A stretch of 64,000 bases of DNA, taken from NCBI GenBank assembly GCA_000004985.1, contig GG738851.1; one strand, given 5' to 3'. The position numbers and the translations under genes are program-made. A model generated the notes under the pieces. It saw only the letters and a program-made list of their open reading frames with translations, did not search any database and was not told where the DNA came from. Of this stretch, positions 1,995-35,052 are shown piece by piece (position 1 is the first letter of the stretch; each line of letters begins with the position of its first letter). This stretch comes from Naegleria gruberi. Lineage: Eukaryota.

Positions 1995-2112
1995 GACTAC
2001 AGCACCACAGGTTCCCAAGTTGTCTCCAACCTCAGTACTGATGTGGCTCGACGATGCTTAACTTCTCAAATCGGACGGGATGAGGTGCATGAATCGTGAT
2101 ATGGCCGTAGCC
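1995..2112 (-). rRNA. 5S ribosomal RNA gene, copy 1 (118 nt)
   Basis: Reverse complement reads GGCTACGGCCATATCACGATTCATGCACCTCATCCCGTCCGATTTGAGAAGTTAAGCATCGTCGAGCC...GGGAACCTGTGGTGCTGTAGTC. It carries the canonical eukaryotic 5S blocks (CATCCCGTCCGAT, GAAGTTAAGC, GTACT, GGTGCTGTAG), and the 5' and 3' ends pair as helix I. A T6 Pol III terminator follows the 3' end. Confidence 0.9.
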
Positions 2113-2642
2113 AATCAATACCTTATTTTGTGAAATATAAAACGATTTGACCCTCCTTTTCAATAGGATTTTAATGCTTCTAATCTCAATTCAAAGTCAA
2201 TCTGTCAACTCTATATCATCACTGGATCTGATTCATTACATTAGAGAAGAAAGTTTAGAGCTTCATTCTCCACTTCGTAGTGATTGGAACCACTTGCAAT
2301 TCTCTGAAGAATTACTGATAGTTCAATTTCGTAAATATCGAAAGATTTTTTTGGATGGTTCTCTTCATTATACGTGAATATCTACTCAAAGTTATGGTTG
2401 TAATATTGACCAATTGTTTCTAATTCAGATTCCTTTTCTGTAAGATTACTGTAGAAACTGTTGAAAAATGTTACATGAAAATCCGAAGAAAATCAACATT
2501 GTTTGCTATTCCTCCTCTTAATTGGAAGGTCTTGGAACGAATCCCTTTTCACTTGGAAAATAATTCCTTGCATTGACATGTTCAAAAACATTTAAAAGGT
2601 CAACCATGCCAAATTCTAAAGTTTAAAGATTGTTCAAGATCC

Positions 2643-4100
2643 ATGAATTTCTTTAAATTGACATGGATTACACGCAACCTTTTCATTGAAGAAAAAAACA
2701 TGTACTTCTCCAGATGTATCACCAACAAGTTGTTAGTTTCAGCTACAACTTTTTCTGCAACATGCATGGCCATTCTCATGGCTTTGATCATGTTATCATC
2801 AGTAACAACAGCCAATTCGCAAACCTATTCATTCAATAAGGATATGGACTACTTTTCATCGAATTATGTTGAAGCTTATCAAAAGTTTAAACAAGTTTGT
2901 GAAGCAACAGGTGGTTACAAGTACTCAGAGTATGAGCTTCCTTCCATTCTTGGTCTTCAAGGTGAAAAATTGTACATGTCTGCATGCTTCCATGAAGAAC
3001 GTGCCAACATGTTGAAGAATAGTGCTGAATCCAATGTTTTCCTTACCTTCTCAGGTGTACATGGACAAGAGGGATTTGCAGGAAGTCCAATTCAGATTGC
3101 CATGATAAAGAATGACACCAAGTATCAATTCAATCTCCCTGAAAATACCTATCCTATTCACATTCACATGTTAAATCCATATGGAGCCAGTTATGCAACA
3201 AAGGAAAATGAAAACAATGTCGACATGTTGAAGAATTTGAATGAACATTACATTGATGTACCTGGTTGGGAAATTTCAAAGAATGTTTTATTGGAACAAT
3301 TCATTGATAATATGAATATTTCATATATTCACTTGGAATCTGTTCAAGCACAAGCAGTCAACTACTTTAACACCCTATTGGCAAAAGTTGGTCTTCCAGC
3401 ATTCACACAATCATCAGTCCTTGGACAAATTCACAGAAAAATTGGAATTGCCTACGCAGGAACTACAGAAGAATGGACAGCCAAGCAAGTTAAAATCATT
3501 TTGAATCAACTCTTGAAAGGCTACTCCTCCGAATATACCAAGAGTAGAAAGGTTTTATATATTGACTTGCACACTGCTGTTGGTGAGTATGGAAATGTGT
3601 ATGCCATGTTCGATCCTGAATGGATTCCATTCGCTAAACAATACCTCCTCAAGAATGAATACATTCACGACAATTTATTTCCATTTCCGAATGGTAAATA
3701 TTTTGGACATTTCATTAAGGAGTTGGCCCTAATGAGTGGAAGCAAGGCCAATTTAACTATTGTTCCAACTGCTTGGGAAATTGGTACATTCCCACAAGAT
3801 GCCTATCAAAATTACTTTTTATTTCAATTGAATTGTAGATTCTATCAAAATATAACTGATAGAAATCCAAACTTTTGTCCATTTGTGAATTCCAAAGTTG
3901 GTGAATATTTCTATCCTCAAGATGACAATTGGAAGTCTTGGGCCTTTGGAAATTTGACAATTGCAATGAGAAGTTCAATGAATGGAATGAATCAATGGAT
4001 TTTGGAAGAAAAGTGGAGAGTTGCAAGTTTGGCAAATTGTAATATTATGCAATCATTCATGGTTATTGTAATGATTATTTGTTTGATTGTTTTATTGTAA
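2643..4100 (+). CDS. Secreted M14-like (DUF2817-like) zinc-carboxypeptidase-fold protein, probably GPI-anchored. The real start is probably the internal Met near 2766 that opens a signal peptide.
   Basis: Signal-peptide-like MAILMALIMLSSVTTANS and a C-terminal hydrophobic tail. SGVHGQEGFAG resembles the M14/AstE-AspA HxxE zinc-binding motif, and LNPYGASY resembles the M14 NPDG motif. A 230-bp relic of this gene sits in the inverted right arm. Confidence 0.5.
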   Translation: MNFFKLTWITRNLFIEEKNMYFSRCITNKLLVSATTFSATCMAILMALIMLSSVTTANSQTYSFNKDMDYFSSNYVEAYQKFKQVCEATGGYKYSEYELPSILGLQGEKLYMSACFHEERANMLKNSAESNVFLTFSGVHGQEGFAGSPIQIAMIKNDTKYQFNLPENTYPIHIHMLNPYGASYATKENENNVDMLKNLNEHYIDVPGWEISKNVLLEQFIDNMNISYIHLESVQAQAVNYFNTLLAKVGLPAFTQSSVLGQIHRKIGIAYAGTTEEWTAKQVKIILNQLLKGYSSEYTKSRKVLYIDLHTAVGEYGNVYAMFDPEWIPFAKQYLLKNEYIHDNLFPFPNGKYFGHFIKELALMSGSKANLTIVPTAWEIGTFPQDAYQNYFLFQLNCRFYQNITDRNPNFCPFVNSKVGEYFYPQDDNWKSWAFGNLTIAMRSSMNGMNQWILEEKWRVASLANCNIMQSFMVIVMIICLIVLL

Positions 4101-4736
4101 ACATTTTAATAAATAATTTGTTGAATTGGATTGATAATTGATATTATATTAATGGAACAATTGTGAAAGATTTGAGTGGGTCTGCAATGTTTTTAAATTA
4201 TTTGGTGGAGGAAAGAATTGGTGGAAAAATAGAGTAACAGAGGAAGTGTAAAGATACATCGATGTTTTAAGGTCAGAAGACATGATACTTTTACAATAGT
4301 TGGTAAATATTGGACATAATCTATTCTGACAAGTTCTATTTAAATAACTCTTCAAGTATTGAAATTACAGTTGATTCCTGGGTGTTACAAAATTTAGCTT
4401 GAATTAACGAGTCTGAAACTATAGGGTTCCATATCGCTATCCTGAACTGAGGGATAATTGAATACATAAAATTCTTCAATCTGAATTGCGATTAGGATCC
4501 TGTCAATGGTTGTTGTTCCAACTCCTCTTTCAATAATGATCATAATTCTGCTCGTTTAAATATGAGCACAAATCAACTAGAATCATGCGCGCAGAATTAA
4601 AAGTATAAATTTTAGGTTTAAATTTTATGGATTTGAAACACAACTCTAATTCCAAACACAAAAAAACAAATTCACAACTAGTTTTTGAATTTAATTCTAT
4701 CTGCACTAACAGTTTACAATCGTAATACAGTACAAT

Positions 4737-5848
4737 ATGAAATACGTCAATTTGGGTGAAAGTGGTTTAAAAGTTTCTCAACTTTGCTTGGGTTGCATGA
4801 GTTTTGGATCTTCCAAGTGGATTCCTTGGGTTTTGGAAGAAGAGGAATCATTGAGAATATTGAAGAAGGCATGGGATTTGGGCATCAACTTTTTCGACAC
4901 TGCCAATATTTACAGCAATGGAGAAAGTGAAAGAATTTTAGGCAAGTTCATTAAGGAATTCAACATTTCAAGAGAGGAAATTGTGGTTGCTACCAAAGTT
5001 TGTGGACCATTGGATCATTCTGGTGAACAAAAACTCATTATGAATAGTAATCAAGGTAAACCAAATACTATGGGTCTTTCCAGAAAGCACATTATGCATG
5101 CAGTTGAGGATTCATTGCAAAGATTGGGTCTTGATTGTAAGTTTTACTTTCTTCTTGTGATTTTAAATGAAAAATTTAAATAGACATTGATTTGTACATT
5201 ATCCATCGTTGGGATGAACAAACACCAATTGAAGAAACTATGGAAGCTCTCCATGATTTGGTTAAATCTGGAAAGGTCAGATACATTGGTGCCTCTACTA
5301 TGTTTGCTTGGCAATTTTCCAAAGCTCAACATTATGCTGAGAAGAAGGGATTGACTAAATTCATTTCCATGCAAAATCTGTACAATCTCATCTATAGAGA
5401 AGAGGAGAGAGAAATGAATCCATTGTGTGTTGATCAAGGTGTTTCACTCACACCTTGGGGACCTCTTTCTAATGGAATGTTAGCTCGTGCTCATGAATTT
5501 GTCAATGCTGAGGAGAAGGCAATTGAAACTACTGAAAATAATTCCAAGAGACAAAATACTGATATTGTTCAAACCATATTTAAGGGCAATTTGACTGAAG
5601 GTGATAAGGAAACTTTGAGAAAAGTTTCTGAAATTGCCAAGAAGAGAAACGTTTCTCCAGCTCAAATTGCACTTGCTTGGTTACTTTCCAAACCTGGAGT
5701 TGTAAGTCCAGTAATTGGTGCAACAAAGGCCATTAATGTTGAGCTCAATGTTCAAGCACTGGAAATTGAATTGACTGAAGAGGAGAAGAAGATTTTAGAA
5801 GGAGCCTACTCTGCAAAGGAAATTCAAGGAATGTTCAAATTAAATTAA
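4737..5848 (+). CDS. Aldo-keto reductase (aryl-alcohol dehydrogenase / Kv-beta-like AKR), join(4737..5136,5184..5848), 355 aa
   Basis: AKR hallmarks are present: GxxxLGxMSFG, DTANIY, and LGLD|YIDLYIIHRWD spanning a 47-nt GTAAGT...AAATAG intron. The stop of ORF 4737..5183 is the last 3 nt of the intron. A near-identical inverted copy lies at 32633..33744. Confidence 0.85.
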
Positions 5849-6236
5849 TGTGACACCAATTCTTGCTTAAAAGAATTTTTTAAGACATGTTTCTTAGTGT
5901 CATCAATAAATTTTCAACAAAGTTATTGGATTTAACACATTTAGATTATTAATTTGTGGCTATTCTTTTTAGTTTAATGGACGGGAAGCCTGTCAGGAAT
6001 ATAACGACAATCCCGCTACAGTCTTTGACTGTATGAACAGTGAAGGCAACGAAGACAGAATCTTGTTGGTTCAGGTTTTGTTTGAAGAAATTGTTAAGGT
6101 TGATAAAACCTCATATTTATTAAACTTTTGCCATGTTGAATTGCAGGATACAAATTTTGGTTTCTCATATTCTGATCAATTCGAAATTGAAACTTCATAT
6201 ATTTACAATTTACTGAATTATTTACAAGTTGCAATT

Positions 6237-6530
6237 TTACATCTTTTTCGATTTGGTAATCTTCTTAGTTGTGGTGTTTGATTGTTTAGCTCTCTTTTCA
6301 ATTGAATTTTTCGAAGATCTTTTAACTGAAATTTGTTTACCATTTAAATTTGCATGATGATAATCAATATTATTACGATGTCTTGTTCCACTTATAATAT
6401 TAGATGTATCAATATCAAATAATGGTAATCTTTTAGATAAATCAATTGGTTTAGATCTTGTCCATTCTGTTTTTGTTGGAATTCTATCTTCGGAAGATGA
6501 AGTATTTGATGAAGTATTTCTAGCTGGCAT
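6237..6530 (-). CDS. Small basic Ser/Thr/Lys-rich protein (97 aa), function unknown
   Basis: The ORF is conserved almost perfectly (1 aa change) in the inverted copy at 31964..32257, while the flanking DNA carries indels. A diverged paralogous fragment lies at 31546..31761. No recognisable domain. Confidence 0.35.
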   Translation of the reverse strand: MPARNTSSNTSSSEDRIPTKTEWTRSKPIDLSKRLPLFDIDTSNIISGTRHRNNIDYHHANLNGKQISVKRSSKNSIEKRAKQSNTTTKKITKSKKM

Positions 6531-7534
6531 TTTGCTCTTAGTTTTTGTTATTTAGTTATTTTGTTTTGTTGTGGAAATTTCATCATCCGAGCTAACAGTT
6601 ATCTATTTATTTCCATGATGATTTCCACTAATTTTGTGATTCCGATTTTTAGTGGATCTTCCACTCATCACAAGAATTTTTCTATTAATATTTTGATGAA
6701 AGGAAATTTAATGAAAATCAACAAACAAAAGAAAATAACAAGCAAAACTTCTAAATCAATCACAGAATTCTTTAGAAATGAGAAACAAACAATTCAAAAT
6801 GTGGTAATCTCCATAAAACTCAAAATTTTGTAAACCTAAGCAATCATTGTAAATAAAACCAAAATGTAAATATTCAGTAAAGTACACAGTTGAATTGTTT
6901 TGACCTATTTTCTTTATTTTCTTCTGAACTGCTGATTCAATTCGCATCCTGCATAAATTTCAAAGTAATTATATCAATTCTGTGTTTGCCCTCCTTCTCA
7001 ATTTTTTCCTGTGAGGGATCATCTGGTATGATTTCTAGCTCTGTTAAATAATAGAACAACTCCTTTTTCTCAAAAACAACAAACCTTTTCGGATGTTTCA
7101 CTTTGTGTCCATTAATTAATCCAACATACTCATAAAATGTAATAAAGAAATTGGTGATTAGTTCTGTAAGAAAAAAAGGGTGTGTCAGATCTGTGGTGGC
7201 AGAACCGTCAGAAATCGGCCCACAGACTTGCTCACAGCCCCGATCATTTGAAGTAGTGGTATTTCAAGTATGCCTGTTGGCTCTCACCTATGCTACACCT
7301 TCAACGAACACGGTTTGGTTGCAGTGTAATCCCTCAATTGGTTCTGCCAATGACAATGAATTGTCTGCAAACTCTAGATGGTTTGAAAATGTCTGATATG
7401 GTTGTGGTTGAGAGATAATTGATATTTAAAACTCCATCTCAGGATTGACATCTTCACATCCATTTTCTCATTTCTAAAATTCCTTTGCCCACTTGTTTAA
7501 GTCAAGTAAAGACAAAATACCAAAAAGATAAAAA

Positions 7535-7652
7535 GACTACAGCACCACAGGTTCCCAAGTTGTCTCCAACCTCAGTACTGATGTGGCTCGACGATGCTTA
7601 ACTTCTCAAATCGGACGGGATGAGGTGCATTCATCGTGATATGGCCGTAGCC
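7535..7652 (-). rRNA. 5S ribosomal RNA gene, copy 2 (118 nt)
   Basis: Same 5S sequence as copy 1 with microheterogeneity (GATGAATG instead of GATTCATG). Followed by a T5 terminator. The upstream ~40 nt resembles the flank of copy 1. Confidence 0.9.
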
Positions 7653-7813
7653 ATTCACTTTCTTAATTTTCGAAATACAAACCGGTTTGATCCTCAATCA
7701 AATATTTGTAATCAAATTCTTTGCACTTCAGTTGCAACATCTTAATAATTCTTTGTTTTTATAAAAATACAAGTATTGTTCATTAAATAATTGTTTAGGG
7801 AATAGTACAATAA

Positions 7814-9292
7814 TTAATTTCTGGAATAGTCAAAATCGTCAAAGTTTTGATTTTCTTCCTTATCAATAACTTCGGCAAATGAATCAACAGCACGTTCAGA
7901 TGTGAATTCTTCATCAAAGTATTTGATATCATCTCCATCTCTGAGTTGTGGTCTGAATGGAGGTTCCAATTGTCGTTGATATAATTGTTCCCAATCAATA
8001 TTTGAGAAGAATGGATGTGATTTGATTTCTTGAGCATCAGTTGGACCACCTCCCAAACGTTTGAATTCTTCTCTTTCCAAGAGACCTCTCAGTAAGGATT
8101 GTGCATCAGGTGGAATGAATTGTGGGAATTTGAGTGGAGCCTTCAAAATTAATTCGTACATTTCATTGATGTTTTCAGAGTAGAATGGTGGCAAACCAAC
8201 CATCATTTCGTATAATAAGATACCTAAACTCCACCAATCGACTGCCTTAGCGTGACCTTGTCCCTTGAGGATTTCTGGAGCCAAATATTCAGGAGTACTA
8301 AACATTTATAATTAGAAAAAATTTAAAAGATTGATTACATACCCACAGAATGTATAAGTTGGAGTAGCATTAGAAATGGATGTCTTGGCCAAACCAAAAT
8401 CTGTCAAGACAACATAACCATCTGAATCCAAAACAACATTTTCTGGTTTCAAATCTCTGTAAATAATATCATTCTTGTGCAAGTGTTCAATGGCCAAAAC
8501 AATTTGAGCAGCATAGAACTTGGCACGTTCAACGTCAAATTTGGTTTCTTCTTTCAAGTGGAAGAACAATTCACCACCTGGCAAGAATTGAAGAACTAGA
8601 TAGAGTTTTTCATCTGTTTGGAATGCATAGTACAATTTGACAATGAATGGATGGTTAATTTCTTGGAGAATTTGCTTTTCAGCCTTTCTATATATGGTGT
8701 AAAAGAGGTGTAAGGTCAATTAGAAAATTGTAAATATTTGGAAATATTAAAATACGTACGTGTGAGAAACCATGTTTTCTTTAACAATCATATCCTTACG
8801 CAAAACCTTCATGGCGAAAATTTCTGTAGTATTCTTTCTTCTAACTTTCATAACTTTTCCGAAACTGCCTCTACCAACGACGGCAATCAATTCAAAATCA
8901 TCCAAAGTGACCTTCTTTGCTTCAGCACTATTTCCACTTGAAACCAACAATGTACTACTCGAAGTATCATTTTTCATTTCCATCTTGGTTTGTTCTAAAC
9001 CCTTTTTATCATTCTTTGGCTTATAGTCAATAGCTCTTTGTAATTCATCCATCCACTTTTTATAATCAAGTTCAGATTCACAAATCAATTCATAGACACG
9101 TGAAAGATTTGGACCACTCAATTTCAATCCGAGTGACTTGTTTCCATCCTTTTCAACTTTGGCATTTGTCAGGACAATGACACCTGTTGGACGCTTATCT
9201 GTATTCTTTTTGTAATAGTACAAGTGTTTACCTCTCAATTCAAACCATCTACGACGGTGAGCAAGAGTATTAAATCCACCTCTCTTTCTCAT
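7814..9292 (-). CDS. AKT/PKB-like AGC Ser/Thr kinase with N-terminal PH domain, complement(join(7814..8297,8343..8687,8760..9292)), ~453 aa
   Basis: PH domain ([16 protein letters not shown]). Kinase motifs [19 protein letters not shown], and TFCG|TPEYLAPE split by a 45-nt intron. C-terminal hydrophobic motif FDDFDYS. Exon 1 and exon 2 are joined across a 71-nt intron (SHT|KAEKQILQ). The listing 'TTTTCAG' immediately upstream of the ATG suggests a possible 5' intron or unresolved first exon. Confidence 0.85.
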
Positions 9293-10330
9293 ATAACCTG
9301 AAAAATCTGGTTGTTCAAATGACTATATGATAGTTATTTTGTTATTATTAATTTGATGTATGTAGCAATCATTCACCATTAGTAGGATAAATTCATCAAT
9401 GGTATTACATTAATTATTATTATAATAATATTATTGTTCATAATTATTATTCAAATAGTAAAGTCAACCGATCAAATCACAAAAACCGAACCGTATTATC
9501 AAATAATAGCAAGAAACAAGAATTGGGTGTGATTATCATCATCATAGGGGAGAGAGAAGAAAACATTCAGTATTACAGTTGGTGTGTTTTTTGTTCAAAG
9601 TAAAATTTAAAAAAGAGCGCGGCAAGTTTTATACAGCAAGCAGGATAACAAGCAATTACGGTATATCATCATATCATTATCAAAAGAATCACATGAATGT
9701 CGCAACAATATATATATTATCAAACAATTGTCTCTGTGTTATTATACTACTATTATTGACTAGTAAAAATACGTACGTCCATCATTTTCTCTGTTTTTTT
9801 GTGTTGGGTGATTTGGTTATAATGTTACTTGTGTTGTTGCTGGTCGAGGAAGAAGTGAGGGAGCAATATTGTGAAATGCGCAGCAGTTTAGCTGTTGTTG
9901 ATTTTGGTTAACACAATGAACTCGTTTTTTTGCAATATATAAAATTGTGATAATTGACAGACAGTTGTTGCATGTCTTGCGGCAAAAGCAAATCAGGTCA
10001 CACAAAAGAGCTTGCCATCAACGTTGAATGACTACTACTATTGTAATGGAAATGTTGTTTGGTTACGAATCACTTGATCTTTGTAAACAGGTCGAAAATG
10101 GTCATCAGATGAAAACAAAACAACATTAAGTGTTCTGAAAGTTTTGATAAAAGTTTAGTTCTGATATTTTCAAAGCAATTCCAATAGAAATTGAACACTT
10201 TATCCAGTGCCATTTGCTCAATGGTACAAGGTTTGATGCAAGTGAGTGAACTACTTCCTTTGAACTTGGCAGAACATTTTTGAATATCCAAAATTTTTGA
10301 AAGGAAAGATCTGTAAATCAAGTTAAAAAA

Positions 10331-11146
10331 ATGGTGTTTCGTCTCTTCTCAAAGATTAGAACAGTTGATGCTAATGATGACCTTTCAACTGTTTCAGAAC
10401 AACACAAAGAAGAATCTAACGTTACAGTGGGGGTAGTTTCCGATACAGTTTCACCATTAAAAAATACGAAACATTCTCTCAAAATAGTAGACAAATTAAA
10501 TAGGGACGAATTATTAATTGTTGGATGTTTTCTAAATACTTCCGAGCTAGCAAATCTTGCTTCATGTAATCAACAATTACTGGAATTATTCTTTAATTTG
10601 ACAATTGACAAGGTCAATTTAATAGCAAAGAGGAAAAAAAAATTCTCAAGTATGAACATGGATTCAAGAATTGTTTCAATCAAGGATGTGTACCAAGAGA
10701 ATGATGAATTATTCTCAACAACTCAAACAATAATTTGGAAACCACTTGTTCTACATTATTTTCCAAGTTATTCGAAATCTCTGAATGTGAAAAATTGGAT
10801 GCACGTATTAAGGAGAAGATTCACACACCTTCAGATACACATGCCAAGATCCAAAAACCAAAACCAAATTCAAATAATTGACAGTAGTGATAAATACAAA
10901 AGGGAATTCGTTGAAGGTTGCGAATGGGAATACGAATGTCCACTCAAAATCACCTCAATGACTTACATTTCCGAGGAAAAGGTATTTTGCAATGTCTGTA
11001 AGGAGAATATTTACAAAGTTCACAATCAAACCGATTTGAAGTATCACACCGAACAAGGACATTGTGTCATTCTAACTGAAAAAAAACATGTTAAAATTGG
11101 AAAGACATATAATCCTGATTATCATGAACTTCCTGCTGTTCGTTAA
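10331..11146 (+). CDS. F-box-like protein with C-terminal Cys/His-rich zinc-finger-like region (271 aa)
   Basis: F-box-like LNRDELLIVGCFLNTSELANLASCNQQLLELF. C-terminal CxWEYECP...CNVCKEN...HxxxxxxH...HC cluster. Confidence 0.5.
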   Translation: MVFRLFSKIRTVDANDDLSTVSEQHKEESNVTVGVVSDTVSPLKNTKHSLKIVDKLNRDELLIVGCFLNTSELANLASCNQQLLELFFNLTIDKVNLIAKRKKKFSSMNMDSRIVSIKDVYQENDELFSTTQTIIWKPLVLHYFPSYSKSLNVKNWMHVLRRRFTHLQIHMPRSKNQNQIQIIDSSDKYKREFVEGCEWEYECPLKITSMTYISEEKVFCNVCKENIYKVHNQTDLKYHTEQGHCVILTEKKHVKIGKTYNPDYHELPAVR

Positions 11147-11553
11147 CTCTCTGTACAATTGGACTCGAATTTTCTTGTTATTGTAACAATGGATGATAAA
11201 ACTCAAGACACATCTCCAATGATGTCTCTCCAAACCAGTATTCCTGTTAATGAAATTCATCATTAGTGGAAACATATTTTTTTCCTTCTCTCTTAACCCT
11301 TATTTAATAATAAGTTCAATGCTTAAAAAAATGGATGTAGAATACGTCCTGTGTGCTGCACAAAGTTATCGAAATGGATGCAAAGATAGAGACAATTATG
11401 GAAGACATTAAAACATTGAAATATCCGAAAGAAATGTGATTGTGATTGTTTGGGTTGCAAGGATTTTTGAATGATTCTGAGAATACTTGCATAACAATTA
11501 TATTCCTTAATTAATTTAAAATAAATTATTTTTGAATAAAGAGAGACTGAGAT

Positions 11554-15144: not shown

Positions 15145-15216
15145 CACAAAGAAACACAGCCTGAGGCTGTAAACTCTCCAATTCACGTCACGTGTGGAAG
15201 GCTGTGTTTCTTTGTG
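15145..15216. repeat. 17-bp perfect inverted repeat (CACAAAGAAACACAGCC ... GGCTGTGTTTCTTTGTG) with a 38-nt loop containing nested palindromes
   Basis: Read directly from the sequence. The loop contains CAGCCTGAGGCTG and CACGTCACGTG. It sits in the 2.4-kb divergent intergenic region between the RWP-RK and CUE genes. Confidence 0.6.
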
Positions 15217-17002: not shown

Positions 17003-17122
17003 ATTAATATAACATTTAACTTGTACATATTCTATTATTTATTTCCGAAAAGTCATGATTAAAACTTCCAAAAATGGGTTTATACCATCTCAGGATTGCT
17101 TACAAAAATAACAAATAAGGAA

Positions 17123-20324: not shown

Positions 20325-20382
20325 AATTCGATGTAAGGAGAAAATATCGGAATAGAGTTTTCAAATATTATTGAAACAACAT

Positions 20383-23436: not shown

Positions 23437-23921
23437 AGCAACAAAAATTGTTTATCCGTGTGTGTATGGATCGTGTTGTGTCTTTGCTTCTGTTCAACCA
23501 AACAACACTCTTCAAAACTCTCTAGGTGATGATCGAACAATCAGAAATGGTGCAATAGACAACAAATAGATGACGTGTTGTTGCAATTTTTTTAAAGCTT
23601 TTCTTTGCTCTCTAACAGTGATGATAAGAAAACAATGACACACTGATGAGGCAGCAAATGCCCGATGATGGTTCCAATACGTTTTTAGAGTTGAGAGGAC
23701 AGTTCTGGTAAGACATTTGCAATAGCAGAAATACATTAAAAAAGGCGCCTTGTTGCAAAGAATGAAAATGGATTGCAATATTAGAAGAAGTGATGGACTT
23801 TTTAAAGTTCGTTTTTGTGCAAAAAGACCGTCATCAAAGGATTAAGGTTTTAAGAGTTTGAGATTTTCAGTTTTTTATTTACACAGTATTTACAATGCAA
23901 TGATAGTAATTTGATTTAAAA

Positions 23922-26264: not shown

Positions 26265-27059
26265 TTTCTGTTAGTCTTTCAATTAGTTTTTTTTCGAATT
26301 GTTAGTTGAAAGCAAACGAAACCGTCTGTTTTATTGGCCTTACCGTTTGTTCAAAAGATTGCGTTGCAATCCAACTTCCCAAGAAAGCTTACTGGTTTCG
26401 TAATCCAAATGGATTTCTTTTGTAAAGTATTGACGTATCTCCACTGTGCATAAACTGGGTTTGGTTTCAGGATTACATTATCGAATCTTTTTGGAAAAGT
26501 TTTGCATCCACAGTGAAAGTCAACATTTTGTCGATGAATGGCATGTAGATGACAACAGGGTGATAGTATTATTTCATTTTTGAATTGTTTTGTAAATAAA
26601 TCATGTAAAAAATTGATTTTGTAAAACTGGTCTTGTCTGCAACTATTTGAAGTAAGGTTCAACCATTGTAATATTTTCAAGTTGACCAACCAATCGGCTT
26701 ACAATATTCGAGGTGGGTACATGTATCCTGAAGACCAATTGCCTTTCTCTATGGCTTGGTACCTCTTAGCCAACTCAATTCTCTGTATTCCAACACCTTA
26801 AATTAAATATTAATAATTTTGATCCTCAACAATGTTTAATAAATGATGTTCATCAATAAAACGTATTCAATGAATTTTAATGGTTCATCACAACAAACAA
26901 AATGCTGTTCACCTCACTTCTGAGGTCCGACCTCGATGTTATGCTGATATCTTTGCAACGATTGAAAAAGGACCAAATTTAAAAACCTCAAAAAACTACG
27001 AAAAAAAATAGCTCGAAGCTGTTTCTCTCATTTGAATTAGTATATAGAATAAACCGAAA

Positions 27060-28291
27060 ATGGGCTTTAACTTGAAGATTGTTGGTGGTACCAGTAATTT
27101 GGAATTGGCGTATGTAGTTTTTAATGTTGAAAGAGTGATGATAATAATTTGTTGTTCGGGTTGATTTTTGTGATATTGGTGTCGATGATATACAAAATTT
27201 ATTTTTCGTCATCCTTTTGTTGATGAATATTTGTGATGGTGAATAGTAAGAAGGTTGCTCAATTCTTACAAATCGATCTTACTGAAACCAAGGTTTACAA
27301 GTTTGCTGATAGTGAAATTGGTGTTCAAATTATGGAAAATGTCAGAGGTGTAAGTATTGAAGATGTATGAGGATTGTATTAATTGTTATTATTATTGGAA
27401 TGGATTAGAGTGGTATGTATTGACTAAAATTCAATGAATTATTTATCGGAATGTAAAGATGTTTATGTTATTCAATCAACATGTACTCCTGTCAATGATA
27501 ACTTTATGGAATTGTGTCTTATTGTCGATGCTTTGAAGAGAGCCAGTTGTAATAGAATTACTGCTGTTGTTCCATATTACGGATATGCTAGACAAGACAG
27601 AAAGACCAAGCCAAGAGTCCCAATTTCTGCTGCCCTCGTCTCTAGATTGTTAGAATCATCAGGTGTTGATCGTGTCTTGTCTGTTGACTTGCATTGTGGT
27701 CAAATTCAAGGTTTCTTCAACATTCCAGTTGACAATCTCCATGCCAAACCAGTTTTGGTCGATCAATTCTATCAAAGAATCGTTTTAGGTGAATCATTGA
27801 AGACTGTTTCCGATTATCAAGGACTTGTTGTCGTTTCACCAGATGCTGGTGGTGCAGAACGTGCTGATAACTTTAGAACTGCATTGAATGAACAAGATCC
27901 ATCTCTCCAAGCTTCTATGGCTGTTATGAATAAGAAGAGAGTTGAAGCCAATAAGGTTTCCACAATGGAATTGGTCGGTAATGTTGAAGGTAAACACTGT
28001 GTCATTGTTGACGACATGATTGACACTGCTGGTACTTTGGCTATGTGTGCTCAAATTTTGAAGGACAATGGTGCTAAGAGAGTCTTTGCTTGTGCCACCC
28101 ATGGTTTATTCAATGGAGCTGGTGTCAAGAAGATGGAAGAAAGTGTCATTGAAAAGGTTATTGTCACAAACACTGTCCCACTCCCAGCTGAAAAGCAACA
28201 CGAAAAGATTATTCAAGTCTGTGTCAGCAAATTGGTTGGTGAAGCTATTAGACGTGTTCACAATGAAGAATCTGTCTCAAGCTTGTTCTAA
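27060..28291 (+). CDS. Ribose-phosphate pyrophosphokinase (PRPP synthetase), join(27060..27109,27247..27347,27459..28291), 327 aa
   Basis: Exon 1 MGFNLKIVGGTSNLELA. Exon 2 KKVAQFL...MENVR. Exon 3 DVYVIQSTCTPVNDNFMEL...HGLFNGAG...AIRRVHNEESVSSLF. Collinear with PRPS along its whole length. Introns begin GTATGT and GTGTAAGT. Confidence 0.85.
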
Positions 28292-28370
28292 ACTGAATGT
28301 GAACTCTCCTGAATAGTATAAATGAAAAATCTTAAAAATAATTAATTTACTTTTTGGAATTGGAATATAA

Positions 28371-30222
28371 TTACAGATTTGGACTACCAACAAGGAGGAA
28401 ATTATCACGAGTCTTTCTCTCAAACTTGTGATTGAATTCATTAATGTGGTGAGTTTTCTTTTGTGGAGTGTGAGGCATGCTTAAATGTTGACCTGCACTA
28501 GCTCCAGATCCAGAAAAATTCAAAGATTGAGTCACATCTCCCAATTGACTAGATTTAAAGAAACTCTTTGGAGGTGTAAATGCTCGTTGTTCTTTGACAC
28601 CCATAATTCTTCCTAATCCTCTCGTTGACAAGGGTTTGTAGACTCTTCCTACCGAGGCAGGAGAGGTTAAATCCTTTGGTTTTCTGTCATCTTTAATATT
28701 CGGTCAATCAAGGTGATATTGTCAAAATTTAACTTACACTTAACCTTAATAGGTGTAATGGGAGAATCAAATTCTCTTCTATTTTCCTCATTTTCTGATC
28801 TTGGTGGCGTGGATTCAACACTCTTGAAAGATCTTGCTGATGAAGTTCCTGAATGTAGTCTCTTTGGAGTGAGGTTTGTTGGTGTGGTTGTTGACTGATA
28901 GAATACTCGATCCTCATTAAGCTTTTTACTAATTTCTAAACTGAGTTGATTCCTTGTTTTGGGTGGTGTTTTAAACATGTCTGCCGATCTAGGAATTGTT
29001 TTTTCACAAGATTGACTGATAGAAACTACCTGTAATGGGAATAGTCTCTCTGTTGCAGTACTTGCTACAGAGAGTGGTAATATTTGAGTTCTATCCTCTC
29101 CTTCTCTCCACATTTTGGCTTGTTTTTCCTTTAAAAATTGCTGTTGAATTCCAATAACCATACCAGGTCTACATACTCTGAGCCATCCAATGACTTCAGT
29201 TGCTGTGAATTGGTAATGTTTCATCATGTAGAGGGCAATCATTGTTCCAGTTCTTCCAAGACCTGCCTTACAATGGACTGCAATGATAGACTCCTCTTCA
29301 GCTATTTGAAGGAATTTCCTGATATGATCCTCACTTGGTGTACTTCCATCTGGGAAGTATAAATCGAAATGATTAATTCCATTACTGATGAATTTCTTTC
29401 GATCATAGAGAGCTCTGTTCAATCTAACAATTGCTGACACTCTCCACTGTTTGAAAGGAGAAATATAATCCTCTGGAGTTAAATGTACATATCCATCACT
29501 TGAAATTCTTCTACTAGATGGTGATGAAAAGGCCAAAAATTTACCGGGCACTACCCAGTTAATGTCTCCATTTTCGACCTTTTCAAGTCTAAGGTATTCC
29601 TCAGCGTCAAATGAATTGTATTTGAAAAATCCAAGGGATATTCCTTTAACAAGACCTTTACAACAATCCAAAATTGACAAGCTGAATGTTGATAAATTTT
29701 GAGAGGCATCCCTGAAAGGAATGAGAGGAGGATAAACAAAATTGAAAGGTTTACATGCATCTTCTGCTGTCTTATCCTGAGAAATGACCATGTAGGCAGC
29801 TGCCAAGAATGCAGCATTTGCTCTCTTTTGACCATCAAAACTTGTCACTAATACTATTCTCTTATTTGTTGTCTGTAACATAATGTATTGAATCAATGTA
29901 AATTAACTCAGAACGCAAGCAAACATACCCTTAACAAGTTATCAATATGTCTACATATTTCTACAGTATATCCTAAATTTACAGGACCAAAATCATGACA
30001 GAATGGTTCATAAACATATCTCTCGTCAAGCATGACAAAAGTTGATTGAGGATTGTCATAGGCCGATGGAGTCCTCCTCAGAGAAACCCAATATAAACGA
30101 TCCTCAATTAGACAAATTGCATCCTTCAGATCTCCTCCCATCTTTTTGGGGCTATTAGAAAAGTTGGTATTGCTCTCTCGCTTTGTGCTACTGTTGCTGG
30201 GCGAGATGGGCAGTATTGTCAT
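28371..30222 (-). CDS. CDC14-family dual-specificity phosphatase, complement(join(28371..28690,28738..29872,29929..30222)), 582 aa
   Basis: N-terminal domain YVYEPFCHDFGPVNLGYTV. Catalytic HCKAGLGRTGTMIALYMMKHYQFTATEVIGWLRVCRPGMVIGIQQQFL. Introns of 56 and 47 nt (GTATGT...TTACAG and GTAAGT...TTAAAG). The exon frames are cross-checked against three ORF-track entries. Confidence 0.85.
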
Positions 30223-30985
30223 ACTATTTGTTTCTATTAAATTGAGAAGGAAAATTGATGATTAATAATAAGTAGAGAAAAGGTGATCGGATCCGATATA
30301 TAGAATGCTATATTAATGATGATACAAACCTGAATTAATACTCTCCTTCACTGAAATGGATGATATCGATAAATTCATCATCCTATTAGAAAGAGTCGAT
30401 GAAGCCGAGGTTGCTCTACTCGGTGTTGAAGAATTCATATTCAATCTCTTTAGATACTGATTCTCTTACTCCCTTAAAAATCTCGGAACAATAAGGTAAA
30501 AATCAAAGAAACTCTGCGTTCGTTCGCCTCTTGATAAACGACTAGTTTTTTTTGAGTTTGTTCAATAGAGAGAACATAGTCTAAGGATGCATTGTTGAGA
30601 GAAGTTTTGAAGCGTAATTTTACTTTAAAAAAATTACGATCGGGGAGAGATGAAATAAATTCTTTCAAGACTTGTCCTTCTTAAGAAAAGTCAATGTGTT
30701 GCGAAGAATTTTACATACGGTTGGGTTTCTGGTGGTATACATCATGATGTGTATTAAGCATTCGAAATATTTTCAAATATTATGCTCTTTGTTGAGATTG
30801 TTGGATGTTCCTAAATCAAAAAGGTGTAAAGGAGAAGTAACTTGTTTATAATTTGGGACATGCGAATACTTGCAATATTGTTTCTCATAAATGATTTGGA
30901 AACGAAAAAGGATCAAACTGGTTTATAGTGAAAGAGGAAAAAGAGGTTTAAATCGTTTTATATTTCGCAAATTAAGAATTTGCAT

Positions 30986-31033
30986 GGCTACGGCCATATC
31001 ACGATTCATGCACCTCATCCCGTCCGATTTGAG
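30986..31033 (+). pseudogene. Truncated 5S rRNA gene (first 48 nt only)
   Basis: GGCTACGGCCATATCACGATTCATGCACCTCATCCCGTCCGATTTGAG, then unrelated sequence. It retains the same upstream flank (AATCGTTTTATATTTCGCAAATTAAG) as the intact copies and lacks the internal box A/box C promoter region. Confidence 0.6.
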
Positions 31034-31963
31034 CAGAAAAATGATGCCCAATCCAACAAGGTCATCTTTGAATTGACTTGTTGGAGATTCTTCGTTGTTC
31101 TATTATTTAACAGAGCGAGAAATCATACCAGATGAATCCTCACAGGAAAAAATTGAGAAGGAGGGCAACAACCACTTTGATTATTGACCAAATTCTGGCT
31201 ACTCATCCTCTTGAGTGAAAGGAGGAGAGTTTCCAGATTCACATTTCAGTCTGCATGATCTCTGAAATGTCCTTCAAGGTAAGTATAAAGAAAGAAAAGA
31301 GTGTAAATTCAAACAAATCTTAAAAACTTTTCAAGATGTATGATTTTTTGAAACCTGAATTATGGTCATTGTTTGTTTTTTTATGATTTGAATTCTTTGA
31401 AATAGTTGAACATGAAGCAAACACAGAATTGATATAATTACTTTGAAATTTATGTAGGATAATTATTTTACATTATTGAATATTTACATTTTGGTTTTAT
31501 TTACAATGATTGCCTAGGTTTTCAAAATTTTGAGTTTTATGGAGATTACCACTTTTTGAATAGTTTGTTTCTCATTTCTAAAGTGTTATGTGATTGAGAT
31601 TTAGAAGTTTTACTTGTTTCATTTCCAACAGAATTCAATGTTTTGTAATCAATTAAATTTCTTCTTCTTGTTCCACCAATAATATTATCCAGAGAAATTT
31701 CGGAATTAAATTGTGAAGTATTATTGGAGGAATTATACATATTTCTTCTTGTTGAGACCATTTTCTAATTGTTGTTTTGTTATTTTCTTTTGTTGTTGAT
31801 TTTCATTAAATTTCCTTTCATCAAAATATTGATAGAAAAATTCAACTTCTTGTGATGAGTGGAAAATCCACCAAAAATCGGAATCACAAAATTAGTGGAA
31901 ATCATCATGGAAATAAATAGATCAACTATCCACAACAAAACAAAATAACTAAATAAGAGCAAA

Positions 31964-32257
31964 ATGCCAGCTAGAAATACTTCATCAAATACTTCATCTT
32001 CCGAAGATAGAATTCCAACAAAAACAGAATGGACAAGATCTAAACCAATTGATTTATCTAAAAGATTACCATTATTTGATATTGATACTTCAAATATTAT
32101 AAGTGGAACAAGACATCGTAATAATATTGATTATCATCATGCAAATTTAAATGGTAAACAAATTTCAGTGAAAAGATCTTCGAAAAATTCAATTGAAAAG
32201 AGAGCTAAACAATCAACCACCACAAATAAGAAGATTACCAAATCGAAAAAGATGTAA
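31964..32257 (+). CDS. Small basic protein (97 aa), inverted duplicate of 6237..6530
   Basis: Identical to the left-arm protein at 96 of 97 residues. A diverged partial paralog lies head-to-head at 31546..31761 (-), with NIIGGTRRRNLIDYKTL against NIISGTRHRNNIDYHHANL. Confidence 0.35.
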   Translation: MPARNTSSNTSSSEDRIPTKTEWTRSKPIDLSKRLPLFDIDTSNIISGTRHRNNIDYHHANLNGKQISVKRSSKNSIEKRAKQSTTTNKKITKSKKM

Positions 32258-32632
32258 AATTGCAACTTGTAAATAATTCAGTAAATTGTAAATAATTGTA
32301 AATAAAACAACTTTGAAATATAGATGAAGTTTCAATTTAGAATTGATCAGAATATGAGAAACCAAAATTTGTATCCTGCAATTCAACATGACAAATGTTC
32401 AATAAATATGAGGTTAATCAACCTTTTCAATTTCTTCAAACAAAACCTGAACCAACAAGATTCTGTCTTCGTTGCCTTCACTGTTCATACAGTCAAAGAC
32501 TGTAGCGGGATTGTCGTCATATTCCTGACAGGCTTCCCGTCTATTAAACTAAAAAGAATATTCACAAATTAATAATCGTTGTTTTTATTTTGTTGCCAAA
32601 GGAATATTTAACAGATTGTTGAGAAAGTCAAA

Positions 32633-33744
32633 TTAATTTAATTTGAACATTCCTTGAATTTCCTTTGCAGAGTAAGCTCCTTCTAATATCTTCTTCTCCT
32701 CTTCAGTCAATTTAATTTCCAATGCTTGAACATTGAGCTCAACATTAATGGCCTTTGTTGCACCAATTACTGGACTTACAACTCCAGGTTTGGAAAGTAA
32801 CCAAGCAAGTGCAATTTGAGCTGGAGAAACGTTTCTCTTCTTGGCAATTTCAGAAACTTTTCTCAAAGTTTCCTTATCACCTTCAGTCAAATTGCCCTTA
32901 AATATGGTTTGAACAATGTCAGTATTTTGTCTCTTGGAATTATTTTCATTAGTTTCAATTGCCTTCTCCTCAGCATTGACAAATTCATGAGCACGAGCTA
33001 ACATTCCATTAGAAAGAGGTCCCCAAGGTGTGAGTGAAACACCTTGATCAACACACAATGGATTCATTTCTCTCTCCTCTTCTCTATAGATGAGATTATA
33101 CAGATTTTGCATGGAAATAAATTTAGTCAATCCCTTCTTCTCAGCATAATGTTGAGCTTTGGCAAATTGCCAAGCAAACATAGTAGAGGCACCAATGTAT
33201 CTGACCTTTCCAGATTTAACCAAATCATGGAGAGCTTCCATGGTTTCTTCAATTGGTGTTTGTTCATCCCAACGATGGATAATGTACAAATCAATGTCTA
33301 TTTAAATTTTTCATTTCAAATCACAAGAAGAAAGTAAAACTTACAATCAAGACCTAATCTTTGTAATGAATCCTCAACTGCATGCATAATGTGCTTTCTG
33401 GAGAGACCCATAGTATTTGGTTTACCTTGATTACTATTCATAATGAGTTTTTGTTCACCAGAATGATCCAATGGTCCACAAACTTTGGTAGCAACCACAA
33501 TTTCCTCTCTTGAAATGTTGAATTCCTTAATGAACTTGCCTAAAATTCTTTCACTTTCTCCATTGCTGTAAATATTGGCAGTATCGAAAAAGTTAATACC
33601 CAAATCCCATGCCTTCTTCAATATTCTCAATGATTCCTCTTCTTCCAAAACCCAAGGAATCCACTTGGAAGATCCAAAACTCATGCAACCCAAGCAAAGT
33701 TGAGAAACCTTTAAACCACTTTCACCCAAATTGACGTATTTCAT
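32633..33744 (-). CDS. Aldo-keto reductase, inverted duplicate: complement(join(32633..33297,33345..33744))
   Basis: Three amino-acid differences against the 4737..5848 copy (S/A, T/N, E/K). The same 47-nt intron carries a TTA->TGA point change, which explains why ORF 33316..33795 stops early. The ORF-track N-terminus MNLILS... is upstream read-through. The real start is MKYVNLG. Confidence 0.8.
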
Positions 33745-34448
33745 ATTGTATTGATTGCGATTGAAAACTGTTAGTGCAGATAGAATTAAATTCAAAAACT
33801 AGTTGTGAATTTGTTTTTTTGTGTTTGGAATTAGAGTTTTGTTTCAAAGCCATGAAATTTAAACCTAAAATTTATACTTTTAATTCTGCGCGCATGATTC
33901 AAGTTGATTTGTGCTCATATTTAAACGAGCAGAATTATGATCATTAGTGAAAGAGGAGGTGGAACAACAACCATTGATAGGATCCTAATCGCAATTTAGA
34001 TTGAAGAATGTTATGAGTTAAAGATAGAGGGAAAAAGACTCCTTATATTTACTGGATGGAATTGTTTCAAATTTTTCATTCCGTCCTTATATTCATATTG
34101 GTATCCATTGAGACTAATAGTAAACCTCATATAATTTAAACCTTCCTTTGAAATATTTGCATCGTGTATGTTCTTGTTGGCCAATAAAATTGTTTTTGTG
34201 TTCCTAATTTTTAGCTAGACCAATTCAAGCTACTTAGGAGTTTACTGTAATTTCAATACTTGAAGCATTATTAAAATATAATTTTTCAGAATAGATAGCA
34301 CCCAATATTTACCAACTATTGTAAAAGTATCATATCTTCTGACCTTAAAACATCGATGTATCTTTACACTCCATATTTACAAAGCTAATTCAAAAAACAA
34401 TTCAAATATTCACAATCGTTTCTTTATAGACTTACGGCAAATGCACAT

Positions 34449-34730
34449 TTACAAATAAGAATATAATATCATGAATTGATATTTGGTGTCATTCTTAATC
34501 ATGGCAATCTGAATTGGACTTCCTGCAAATTCCTCTCGTCCATGTTCACCTGAGAAGATAAGGAAAACATTGAATTCAGCACTATTCTTCAACATGTTGG
34601 CACGTTCTTCATGGAAGCATACAGACATGTACAATTTTTCACCTTGAAGAAGACCAAGAATGGAAGGAAGCTCATACTCTGAGTACTTGTAACCACCTGA
34701 TCTAGAGTTGACAGGGTGATTGAGGGTCAA
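34449..34730 (-). pseudogene. Relic (~230 bp) of the M14-like gene
   Basis: Encodes GGYKYSEYELPSILGL..GEKLYMS.CFHEERANMLKNSAE.NVFL.FSG.HG.E.FAGSPIQIAMIKNDTKYQF, homologous to residues ~90-165 of ORF 2643..4100. The rest of that gene is absent from this arm. Confidence 0.6.
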
Positions 34731-34764
34731 ATCGTTTTATATTTCGCAAATTAAGGTATTGAAT

Positions 34765-34882
34765 GGCTACGGCCATATCACGATGAATGCACCTCATCCC
34801 GTCCGATTTGAGAAGTTAAGCACCGTAGAGCCACATCAGTACTGAGGTTGGAGACAACTTGGGAACCTGTGGTGCTGTAGTC
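34765..34882 (+). rRNA. 5S ribosomal RNA gene, copy 3 (118 nt)
   Basis: GGCTACGGCCATATCACGATGAATGCACCTCATCCCGTCCGATTTGAGAAGTTAAGCACCGTAGAGCCACATCAGTACTGAGGTTGGAGACAACTTGGGAACCTGTGGTGCTGTAGTC, then T5. Its upstream flank matches copy 1 in inverted orientation. Confidence 0.9.
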
Positions 34883-35052
34883 TTTTTATTTATCCTTAGC
34901 TGTTGAATTAAAAAGGATTCGTTGATTATTACTTTTTAATATTAAATATCAGTTTGATTATTACTCTGAAACAAGTAATCAAATTTCAATAATTCACTAT
35001 TCACAGTTTAATTTATTTACAATAATTGAGAGAGTTTACGATATTATGCTAT

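Follow-up and report, generated by a model that had tools for sequence, protein, structure and literature searches.

The window analysed here is a 64-kb stretch of DNA from Naegleria gruberi NEG-M, and open reading frames (ORFs) within it are identical to the N. gruberi proteins EFC48511.1 and EFC48381.1. It contains three full 5S rRNA genes. Copy 1 (1994-2112) and copy 2 (7534-7652) are encoded on the minus strand, copy 3 (34765-34883) on the plus strand. When analyzed by cmscan against Rfam 15, they score 100.3, 105.4 and 103.0 bits, respectively, for RF00001, which has a gathering score of 38 bits. The E-values range from 1e-20 to 4e-22, and model positions 1-120 are all covered. Helix I, the helix II/III arm and the helix IV/V arm are reproduced in the ViennaRNA minimum free energy (MFE) structures of all three copies. 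The preliminary description was thus right to call these bona fide 5S genes, and its coordinates are correct within 1 nt.

A fourth unit is truncated. A 20-mer probe from the 5' end of the gene occurs four times in the window and a 37-mer from the 3' end three times, with none expected in shuffled sequences. The additional 5' match belongs to a fragment at 30986-31033 (plus strand), which, as already described, consists of 48 nt from the 5' end and matches nt 1-48 of copy 1 at every position. On its own, the fragment scores 22 bits and is below the gathering score of RF00001. It lacks nt 50-64, the region matching the published box A consensus, and everything 3' of that, and no terminator T run follows it. 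The adjoining 60 nt (31034-31093) match nothing else in the window. The fragment is a dead remnant.

All four units are preceded by a common upstream block of ~45 nt (GAGGnTCAAATCGTTTTATATTTCGCAAATTAAG...), which had been given as a shared flank of ~40 nt; similarity ends farther upstream. The flank of copy 3 (34717-34764, plus strand) matches a 29-mer flank consensus exactly at 34727-34755. That of the truncated unit (30937-30985, plus strand; also seen in the BLAST blocks) has one mismatch to this consensus at 30948-30976, and that of copy 1 (2113-2161, minus strand) has two at 2122-2150. The flank of copy 2 (7653-7700, minus strand) aligns as a diverged version, GAGGATCAAACCGGTTTGTATTTCGAAAATTAAG. 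Between copies 1 and 3, homology continues past this family-wide flank and reaches farther upstream in the alignment (TGAT[A/C]TAGAGTTGACA, 34698-34714). The block is partly recognisable in a metagenome contig (L001, see below). Within the conserved flank, including that of copy 1, a TATA-like element is found at ~-27 to -24, matched by eye to a degenerate consensus. The same holds for AGTTAAGC at nt 50-57, a by-eye match to the degenerate box A consensus N(G/C)(C/T)(C/T)AANC (PMC3369914). The T5-6 terminators noted before are present as a T6 run directly 3' of copy 1 and T5 runs after copies 2 and 3. The upstream block presumably has promoter function, and the 5S unit would then be a self-contained Pol III transcription unit, made up of three parts: the ~45-nt block (TATA-like element around -25), the 119-nt gene, which includes the internal control region, and the T5-6 run.

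The upstream region of the truncated unit is more complex. Its own flank is only ~79% identical to that of copy 2. A second, orphan promoter remnant, AGGATCAAACTGGTTTATAG, lies 35 nt farther upstream, at 30909-30928 (plus strand) close to this flank; it resembles the flank of copy 2, and a global alignment pairs it with 7699-7680. Because of the divergent flank, the copy-2-like remnant upstream and the 60-nt unmatched filler, the fragment does not derive from a copy-2 paralogue by a clean deletion, and one or more additional rearrangements or conversions are needed to account for this locus.

The 5S genes of N. gruberi were published as a set of 279 putative genes in 2012 (Feng et al., PLoS One 7:e36878, PMC3369914). 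They are reported to have an upstream TATA box, an internal control region and T-run terminators. According to Table 1 of that paper, they are not located with the rDNA units; its authors found no homologue of TFIIIA in N. gruberi, and the arrangement is labelled "tandem" in a summary table. Matched by spacing (5540 and 27232 bp in Table S1; 5540 and 27230 bp in the window), copies 1, 2 and 3 correspond to the Table S1 rows scaffold_7:545993 (similarity class 0.7333), scaffold_7:551533 (class 0.75) and scaffold_7:578765. The window 5S genes are a real feature that is already known, being ordinary catalogued members of the N. gruberi family. The individual sequence variants, the truncated fragment and the inverted segmental duplication described below are absent from the description in PMC3369914.

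Within the window, the full copies are 5.5 kb and 27 kb apart and are separated by protein-coding ORFs. No 18S, 28S or 5.8S rRNA was found in the 64 kb with Rfam at gathering or E<=1 thresholds, so that the earlier statement that the genes are part of neither a tandem array nor an rDNA unit is upheld. The large rRNA genes of Naegleria are carried on an extrachromosomal plasmid. A re-analysis of Table S1 provides the genome-wide survey of copy number and arrangement: the 279 hits are distributed over 117 scaffolds, the median gap on the same scaffold is 34 kb, and there is only a single gap below 1 kb. A neighbour within 6 kb exists for 72 of the 279 hits, and 42 of the 162 gaps are below 10 kb (6.6% are expected at random). 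The Table S1 coordinates show dispersal with loose pairs at 1-6 kb, contrary to the "tandem" label of the paper.

The preliminary description overlooked that the four 5S units form two positional pairs of paralogues, which mark the ends of an inverted segmental duplication. The left arm spans ~1985-7700 when the 5S units are included (body 2908-7060), and the right arm spans ~30937-34891 (body 31094-34699). Both were delineated by inverted repeats and BLAST, complemented by Pfam for the left and by alignments for the right arm. Left 2908-7060 is inverted and colinear with right 34699-31094 in seven BLAST blocks of 89-98% identity, and the left body is marked out by the inverted repeat pairs I1-I17. 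The left arm carries a DUF2817 gene (2643-4100, Pfam) that is intact and is represented in the right arm by pseudogene pieces only (34244-34370 and 34472-34699). An aldo-keto reductase ORF is present in both arms (5192-5848, assigned by Pfam, and 32633-33289, minus strand), in each case inside a 1390-nt block that is 97.7% identical (BLAST). The right arm lacks ~690 bp (left 2218-2907) and ~1.1 kb (left 3133-4244). As each arm has a 5S unit at either end, copy 1 is paired with copy 3 and copy 2 with the fragment. Repeat search, BLAST and alignments did not detect homology outside the 5S units at either arm end; inter-arm homology stops no more than ~10 nt from the 3' end of copies 1/3 and at about -50 of the copy 2/fragment region.

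Next to the fragment, the right arm contains a candidate U1 snRNA (31116-31286, minus strand), of which the left arm retains a 3' remnant (~6986-7038). The candidate scores below the Rfam gathering threshold and is probably a U1 snRNA gene.

The copies differ at two sites. At nt 21-22, copy 1 and the fragment have TC, copies 2 and 3 have GA. At nt 59/63, copy 3 has C/A, copies 1 and 2 have T/C. By MFE, copy 2 (-41.5 kcal/mol) is more stable than copies 1 (-37.6) and 3 (-36.8). With TC, the terminal G21-C57 pair of helix II gives way to a U.C mismatch, at a cost of 3.9 kcal/mol in MFE and 2.7 kcal/mol on the consensus structure. This contradicts the expectation that local pairing would be preserved. 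The energy of the consensus structure changes from -20.5 to -17.8 kcal/mol with TC and to -19.1 kcal/mol with C59. The difference at nt 59/63 had been correctly noticed as a second site, and it is not compensatory either: T59C breaks A19-U59 with an unchanged partner (A19.C59), and C63A falls in an unpaired bulge. In agreement with this, cmscan flags a non-canonical pair in copy 1 (model columns 21/58) and in copy 3 (columns 19/60), and every consensus pair of copy 2 is standard. Neither cmscan nor folding revealed a compensatory partner change for U21.C57 or A19.C59. Copies 1 and 3 are therefore slightly destabilised and not compensated, each having one disrupted helix II pair; they are minor variants.

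These variants were compared with other samples. The 5S gene of a metagenomic relative (contig L001) differs from copy 2 only at nt 24 and has GA at nt 21-22, T59 and C63. A second, N. gruberi-like sample (98.5% identical) was compared at copies 2 and 3. Copy 2 is identical there (contig L004), and the orthologue of copy 3 (ENA contig L002) has the canonical T59/C63 together with an identical downstream flank. As far as this sequence comparison goes, C59 and A63 of copy 3 are strain-specific. Both loci have GA in this sample, so that no orthologous locus is seen in both the GA and the TC state among these two contigs. Copy 2 is the canonical gene, because its pairs are standard throughout, it belongs to the majority similarity class 0.75 (161 of the 279 Table S1 hits, the classes being a mere proxy for variant frequency among the 279 copies) and it has the L001 bases at the four variable sites. 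It is presumably functional.

We consider it very probable that the four units are members of the dispersed N. gruberi 5S family that were copied by an inverted duplication followed by decay, with TC being spread by conversion or recombination. The units would not go back to four independent insertions. A segment with a 5S gene at each end (copy 1, followed by DUF2817, aldo-keto reductase and U1, then copy 2) was duplicated in inverted orientation ~23 kb away. After duplication, the arms probably decayed reciprocally: most of the DUF2817 copy disappeared from the right arm, where one 5S unit was also shortened by 71 nt at its 3' end to the 48-nt fragment, and the left arm lost the 5' part of U1. 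The distribution of GA and TC ignores positional paralogy, and TC is thus better regarded as a family-level minor variant than as a micro-inversion specific to one locus. Because both positional pairs are discordant at this site, two events are needed, either conversion or recurrence. Most probably, ectopic gene conversion or recombination of dispersed copies with one another has carried TC from locus to locus. The duplication is observed, as are the identity and structure of the genes and the energetic effect of their variants; gene conversion is inferred, along with promoter function and expression status.

The minor variants might also be young pseudogenes, either silent or non-functional. 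Copies 1 and 3 both have a broken pair in helix II and score lower with Rfam than copy 2, the only other unit with TC (the fragment) is clearly dead, and a recent change not yet purged would be expected to be strain-specific, as C59/A63 is. However, the upstream block, the terminator and all other nucleotides are intact in both copies, which still score ~100 bits, and helix II often tolerates one mismatch, be it terminal or internal. Moreover, ~30% of the Table S1 hits are in similarity classes (again as a proxy) just under the majority class. Loss of function in copies 1 and 3 is accordingly a possibility that we consider somewhat unlikely.

The duplication itself may have been caused by the 5S units. 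In this scenario, homologous recombination between 5S genes copied a 5S-X-5S segment into another 5S gene, either by gap repair of a broken target 5S gene with two template 5S copies or by reintegration of an excised circle at a 5S gene. It would explain why inter-arm homology stops at the outer edge of the 5S units at both ends. The fragment differs from copy 2 in its flank and in having TC, as if sequence from the target had been kept, and copies 3 and 1 are distinguished solely by changes within the 5S body, the downstream flank of copy 3 being unrelated. Suitable 5S-X-5S arrangements are common substrates genome-wide, given the numbers of close neighbours and short gaps in Table S1. However, a plain segmental duplication with the adjoining deletions that are observed (~690 bp and ~480 bp) would look nearly alike, and the copy-2-like promoter remnant at 30909-30928 fits better to plain co-duplication. 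An extra event is required here too, as copy 3 has GA and its template copy 1 has TC. This is a single case. We rate a causal role of the 5S units as unlikely. A still bolder generalization, which we regard as doubtful, is that the dispersed 5S units of Naegleria are portable recombination handles, by which 5S-X-5S blocks are copied into other 5S genes. If so, these handles would spread 5S genes and at the same time duplicate the protein and snRNA genes that are caught between them. The inverted duplication in the window would be one such event; about one quarter of the family is involved in 5S-X-5S arrangements.

The preliminary description had interpreted the first site as a true micro-inversion, in which a palindromic hexamer was flipped and tolerated since local pairing potential is kept. 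ATGAAT and ATTCAT are indeed exact reverse complements, and a recurrent mechanism could account for TC in both copy 1 and the fragment, which are not paired by position. The hexamer is, however, not palindromic, and only its central two bases differ. With only GA/TC exchanged, an inversion of 6 nt (or of 4 or 2 nt) is indistinguishable from a tandem double substitution, and because one of the nine possible double changes of GA gives TC, the reverse-complement relation is weak evidence for inversion. The inverted flanks around the site are restricted to AT/AT, the adjoining CACG and GCAC not being mutual reverse complements, and are too short to hint at template switching. The loss of G21-C57, with its cost in folding energy, speaks against toleration by preserved pairing, and both contigs of the second strain have GA, with no locus seen in both states. 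The comparison is one of paralogous copies, and the term polymorphism, in its allelic sense, may not apply. A micro-inversion is very improbable. An origin as 5S-derived retroposed or SINE-like elements instead of DNA-level duplicates, which dispersal and a 5'-only fragment might suggest, can practically be dismissed, because the units share ~45 nt upstream of +1 that a retrocopy of the RNA would lack, end in a T-run terminator instead of an A-rich tail, and in copies 1 and 3 share flanking DNA past the unit and kilobases of neighbouring sequence.

Under the preferred reading, duplication and decay within a dispersed family, little is at stake. The literature already covers the N. gruberi 5S family with its copy number, its upstream TATA box and its location apart from the rDNA plasmid, and fungi and amoebae offer classic cases of dispersed 5S families that include variants and truncated pseudogenes. 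The additions are modest: dispersal as opposed to the "tandem" label, the duplication termini, the non-compensatory variants and the probable U1 snRNA gene adjoining the fragment. As the ends of a decaying inverted duplication, the four units provide one concrete example of multiplication at the DNA level, affecting 5S genes together with the genes between them. The variants, which do not compensate for one another and are at least in part specific to a strain, agree with birth-and-death evolution under weak purifying selection, accompanied by occasional conversion.

Dispersed 5S families are reportedly found in Neurospora crassa, Aspergillus and Schizosaccharomyces pombe, where they are said to be subject to birth-and-death evolution. 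In such fungi, single units lie among protein-coding genes and are preceded by a short conserved stretch containing a TATA-like box at -25 to -30, and several variants coexist with pseudogenes that are truncated but retain the 5' part. The Naegleria units are alike in being scattered, in their TATA-like box, in their variants and in the 5' nature of the truncated pseudogene. They differ in belonging to an unrelated lineage (Heterolobosea) and in having a longer upstream block (~45 nt). Yeasts have segmental duplications whose borders are formed by dispersed repeats, for instance tRNA genes and LTRs. The duplication in the window resembles these in that its end points fall on members of a family of small genes that are dispersed and near-identical; here, however, the bounding repeats are 5S units, and any causal role would be drawn from a single case. 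In Acanthamoeba castellanii, the 5S rDNA is dispersed as well, with ~100 copies across most chromosomes (PMC9528979). Both organisms are free-living amoebae with dispersed, non-arrayed 5S genes, and they are likened by this arrangement alone, Acanthamoeba belonging to Amoebozoa.

The three full-length 5S rRNA genes of the window (copy 1, 1994-2112, minus strand; copy 2, 7534-7652, minus strand; copy 3, 34765-34883, plus strand) were found by a cmscan search of the window against Rfam 15. They match RF00001 over its full length with 100.3, 105.4 and 103.0 bits, respectively, far above the gathering score of 38 and with E-values of 1e-20 or better. This search had been proposed in the preliminary description, and it bears out the three intact genes reported there. 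The 48-nt piece at 30986-31033 (plus strand) is also as described and does not differ from copy 1 over nt 1-48. The 5' 20-mer of the 5S gene occurs four times in the window and the 3' 37-mer three times, while shuffles expect zero. The terminators noted earlier are in place, with T6 directly after copy 1 and T5 after copies 2 and 3. An upstream flank common to the copies had been recognized correctly, but the block (GAGGnTCAAATCGTTTTATATTTCGCAAATTAAG...) spans about 45 rather than about 40 nt and is found in all four units. Further upstream, the similarity among the units ends. The three full copies are 5S genes that have the standard fold, end at a T-run terminator and follow a conserved upstream block that contains TATA. 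Because this block is conserved among non-paralogous units whose flanking DNA is not, we infer that it is a promoter element. It is partly recognizable in L001, a metagenome contig with a related 5S gene. The promoter reading agrees with PMC3369914, where a TATA box is described upstream of N. gruberi 5S genes along with T-run terminators and an internal control region. The fragment is probably a dead unit, as it lacks a terminator, the stretch nt 50-64 (a match to the published box A consensus) and all sequence 3' of that stretch. The Rfam search of the window found no other rRNA; it also returned a tRNA-Asp(GTC) gene (36369-36439, minus strand), 1.5 kb from copy 3.

A search of the N. gruberi genome by Feng et al. 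(2012) yielded 279 putative 5S genes, reported as unlinked to rDNA units; TFIIIA was reported to be undetectable in this organism (PMC3369914). Two window ORFs match exactly N. gruberi proteins (EFC48511.1, EFC48381.1) encoded on a 693,645-bp contig. In the published coordinate list (Table S1 of PMC3369914), the scaffold_7 rows 545993, 551533 and 578765 are spaced by 5540 and 27232 bp, and the window copies by 5540 and 27230 bp. These near-equal spacings place the window at about scaffold_7:544,000-608,000, with an extra 5S row (543593) about 400 bp to its left. The window genes are members of the published family: real, ordinary and already known. We transcribed and re-analyzed Table S1 (279 entries on 117 scaffolds, with 162 same-scaffold gaps). 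The gaps have a median of 34 kb; 38 are below 6 kb and a single one is below 1 kb. Gaps below 10 kb account for 42 of the 162 (26%), compared to 6.6% expected if 279 copies were scattered randomly in a genome that we take to be about 41 Mb. Loose pairs and trios are, therefore, common. Although Table 1 of PMC3369914 scores the arrangement as tandem, the scaffold spread and gap lengths show a dispersed family in which loose pairs 1-6 kb apart are over-represented. The preliminary description was right in calling the family dispersed, yet this was already in the literature (PMC3369914).

The four units are real, but the preliminary description missed that they lie at the ends of an inverted segmental duplication (left arm about 1985-7700, right arm about 30937-34891). 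The duplication took in two 5S loci and several kb of DNA between them, and both arms have since decayed in a reciprocal manner. The stretches 2908-7060 (left) and 34699-31094 (right) are colinear as reverse complements, with 89-98% identity (repeat search, BLAST), and each arm carries 5S units at both ends. The same searches of the window found no inter-arm homology outside the 5S units, so that each end point of the duplication falls on the outer edge of a 5S unit. The homology between copies 1 and 3 continues past the family-wide flank (TGAT[A/C]TAGAGTTGACA), which makes them true paralogues. The fragment is the positional counterpart of copy 2. It does not derive from the paralogue of copy 2 by a single clean deletion: this is ruled out by a flank that is only about 79% identical to that of copy 2, by a copy-2-like promoter remnant (AGGATCAAACTGGTTTATAG, 30909-30928) just upstream of the fragment's own flank, and by 60 nt without a match elsewhere in the window that follow the break of the 5S sequence at nt 48.

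The DUF2817 gene is intact in the left arm (2643-4100, plus strand), while only two pieces are left in the right arm, where about 690 bp and 1.1 kb are missing. Conversely, a 248-bp stretch of the right arm (31169-31416), comprising nt 1-118 of a U1 snRNA candidate and about 130 bp upstream, is absent from the left arm. There, 6986-7060 (plus strand), corresponding to 31094-31168, retains the 3' ~53 nt of U1 and its downstream flank; the deletion junction has a 4-nt overlap. The loss of duplicated genes is thus reciprocal, affecting U1 in the left arm and 5S and DUF2817 in the right arm. Both arms have kept an aldo-keto reductase ORF (PF00248; 5192-5848, plus strand, and 32633-33289, minus strand). 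These ORFs lie within 1390-nt blocks (4465-5854, plus strand; 32627-34015, minus strand) that are 97.7% identical, whereas the adjoining non-coding blocks are only 89-92% identical, which suggests that both copies are under selection or that gene conversion has occurred between the two. The DUF2817 ORF has no entry as such in the protein collection. The homologue search with this protein gave a 91%-identical N. gruberi paralogue of 363 aa on a different contig (275 kb); its other matches were distant relatives. Given this paralogue, the duplicated segment, or part of it, may exist in a third copy elsewhere in the genome.

It is tempting to speculate that homologous recombination between 5S genes duplicated a 5S-bounded block, possibly by gap repair or through an excised circle that reintegrated into a target 5S gene. 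Such recombination would account for the homology stopping at the edges of the 5S units, and for the fragment, an outer unit, having a flank and a variant unlike those of copy 2. We consider it unlikely. Plain co-duplication, followed by the deletions seen beside the 5S units, accounts for almost all of these observations. Retroposed or SINE-like copies are rejected, as the units share a non-transcribed upstream flank and lack an A-tail, and the co-duplicated neighboring DNA also excludes retroposition.

The U1 candidate (31116-31286, minus strand) scores 40.7 bits, below the Rfam gathering score of 69.5, with an E-value of 7.7e-07 for the whole window and 1.1e-08 in a 901-nt sub-search. Its 5' AUACUUACCU is perfect, an Sm-like site (AAUUUUUU) is present, and its MFE fold shows a four-way junction and a 3' hairpin (z = -2.6). 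It is probably a U1 snRNA gene. This divergent U1 may be poorly annotated, since a 2008 snRNA screen used a 55.7-bit U1 cut-off and gave N. gruberi an extra unfiltered U1 search (PMC2396436). Several small-RNA genes (5S units, U1 candidate, tRNA-Asp) lie together within about 5.5 kb (30.9-36.4 kb). A divergent di-ubiquitin ORF (35053-35511, minus strand), 170 bp downstream of copy 3, has two 76-aa ubiquitin repeats, each with an RGG end, which explains a 228-nt tandem repeat found by the repeat search (units 76% identical). A 799-bp contig (VFQN01114259.1 from GCA_006365155.1) is 91.5% identical to window 34993-35666 and encodes an identical 152-aa di-ubiquitin protein; its probable source is a different strain or species of Naegleria represented in that assembly. 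An uninterrupted 4053-aa ORF (48702-60863, minus strand) has a UBR4-type E3 ubiquitin ligase C-terminal domain (PF13764, E = 1e-176).

The copies differ exactly where the preliminary description had stated: at nt 21-22, copy 1 and the fragment read TC, against GA in the other two copies; at nt 59/63, copy 3 has C/A, against T/C in copies 1 and 2. Helix II of the Rfam consensus structure includes the pairing of nt 17-21 (CGAUG) with nt 57-61 (CAUCG), and A22 sits in the adjoining loop. All consensus pairs are standard in copy 2 (MFE -41.5 kcal/mol, consensus-structure energy -20.5 kcal/mol). The GA to TC change of copy 1 turns G21-C57 into U.C (-37.6 and -17.8 kcal/mol), and T59C of copy 3 turns A19-U59 into A.C (-36.8 and -19.1 kcal/mol). 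C63A is located in an unpaired bulge and leaves the energy unaffected. The variants thus weaken helix II. The proposed preservation of local pairing potential is not supported: when folded to look for compensatory changes, neither TC nor T59C proved to be compensated.

The first of these differences had been attributed to the micro-inversion of a palindromic 6-mer. ATGAAT and ATTCAT are indeed each other's reverse complement. However, neither hexamer is palindromic, and the difference is confined to the central dinucleotide. Of the nine ways in which both bases of GA can be substituted, one yields TC, and the inverted flanks are restricted to AT/AT, the bases beyond not being complementary. 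An inversion would be indistinguishable from a tandem double substitution, and the sequence lends it no support. The two units with the TC state are not each other's positional paralogue; the presence of TC at two separate loci rules out a sequencing error. The economical explanation is ectopic conversion, by which TC would have moved from other TC-type copies, given the approximately 279 near-identical copies of the family. A recurrent local event is a possibility.

Copy 2 looks canonical: besides having only standard pairs, it shares the similarity class of most Table S1 entries (161 of 279; the classes of copies 3 and 1 have 40 and 27 members), and the 5S gene of L001, an unrelated contig (GA21-22, T59, C63), differs from it only at nt 24. 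L001 was the single relative in a metagenome scan with GGTTGGAGACAACTTGGGAA; the 26-mer ATGCACCTCATCCCGTCCGATTTGAG had no match in the metagenome, GTDB-genome and IMG/VR contigs scanned. Via small window ORFs, N. gruberi-like contigs with 98.5-99.6% identity to the window were found in a public "metagenome" assembly (ENA ERZ929261). They cover the orthologues of copy 3 (L002, k127_274169, aligned to 34781-35667) and copy 2 (L004, aligned to 7532-8826), and both contigs stop within or just beyond a 5S gene. In L004, the orthologue matches copy 2 without change. The copy 3 orthologue has the canonical CATCGTCGAG without C59/A63 despite an identical downstream flank, which makes C59/A63 a recent, strain-level change. 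We infer that copy 2 is the working gene, whereas the variants in copies 1 and 3 would be either tolerated or in decay.

The 5S genes of Neurospora, Aspergillus and S. pombe form dispersed families, like those of N. gruberi. The 5S family of Acanthamoeba shares this dispersed organization (PMC9528979). As in N. gruberi, minor variants and pseudogenes that retain the 5' part are found in these dispersed families.
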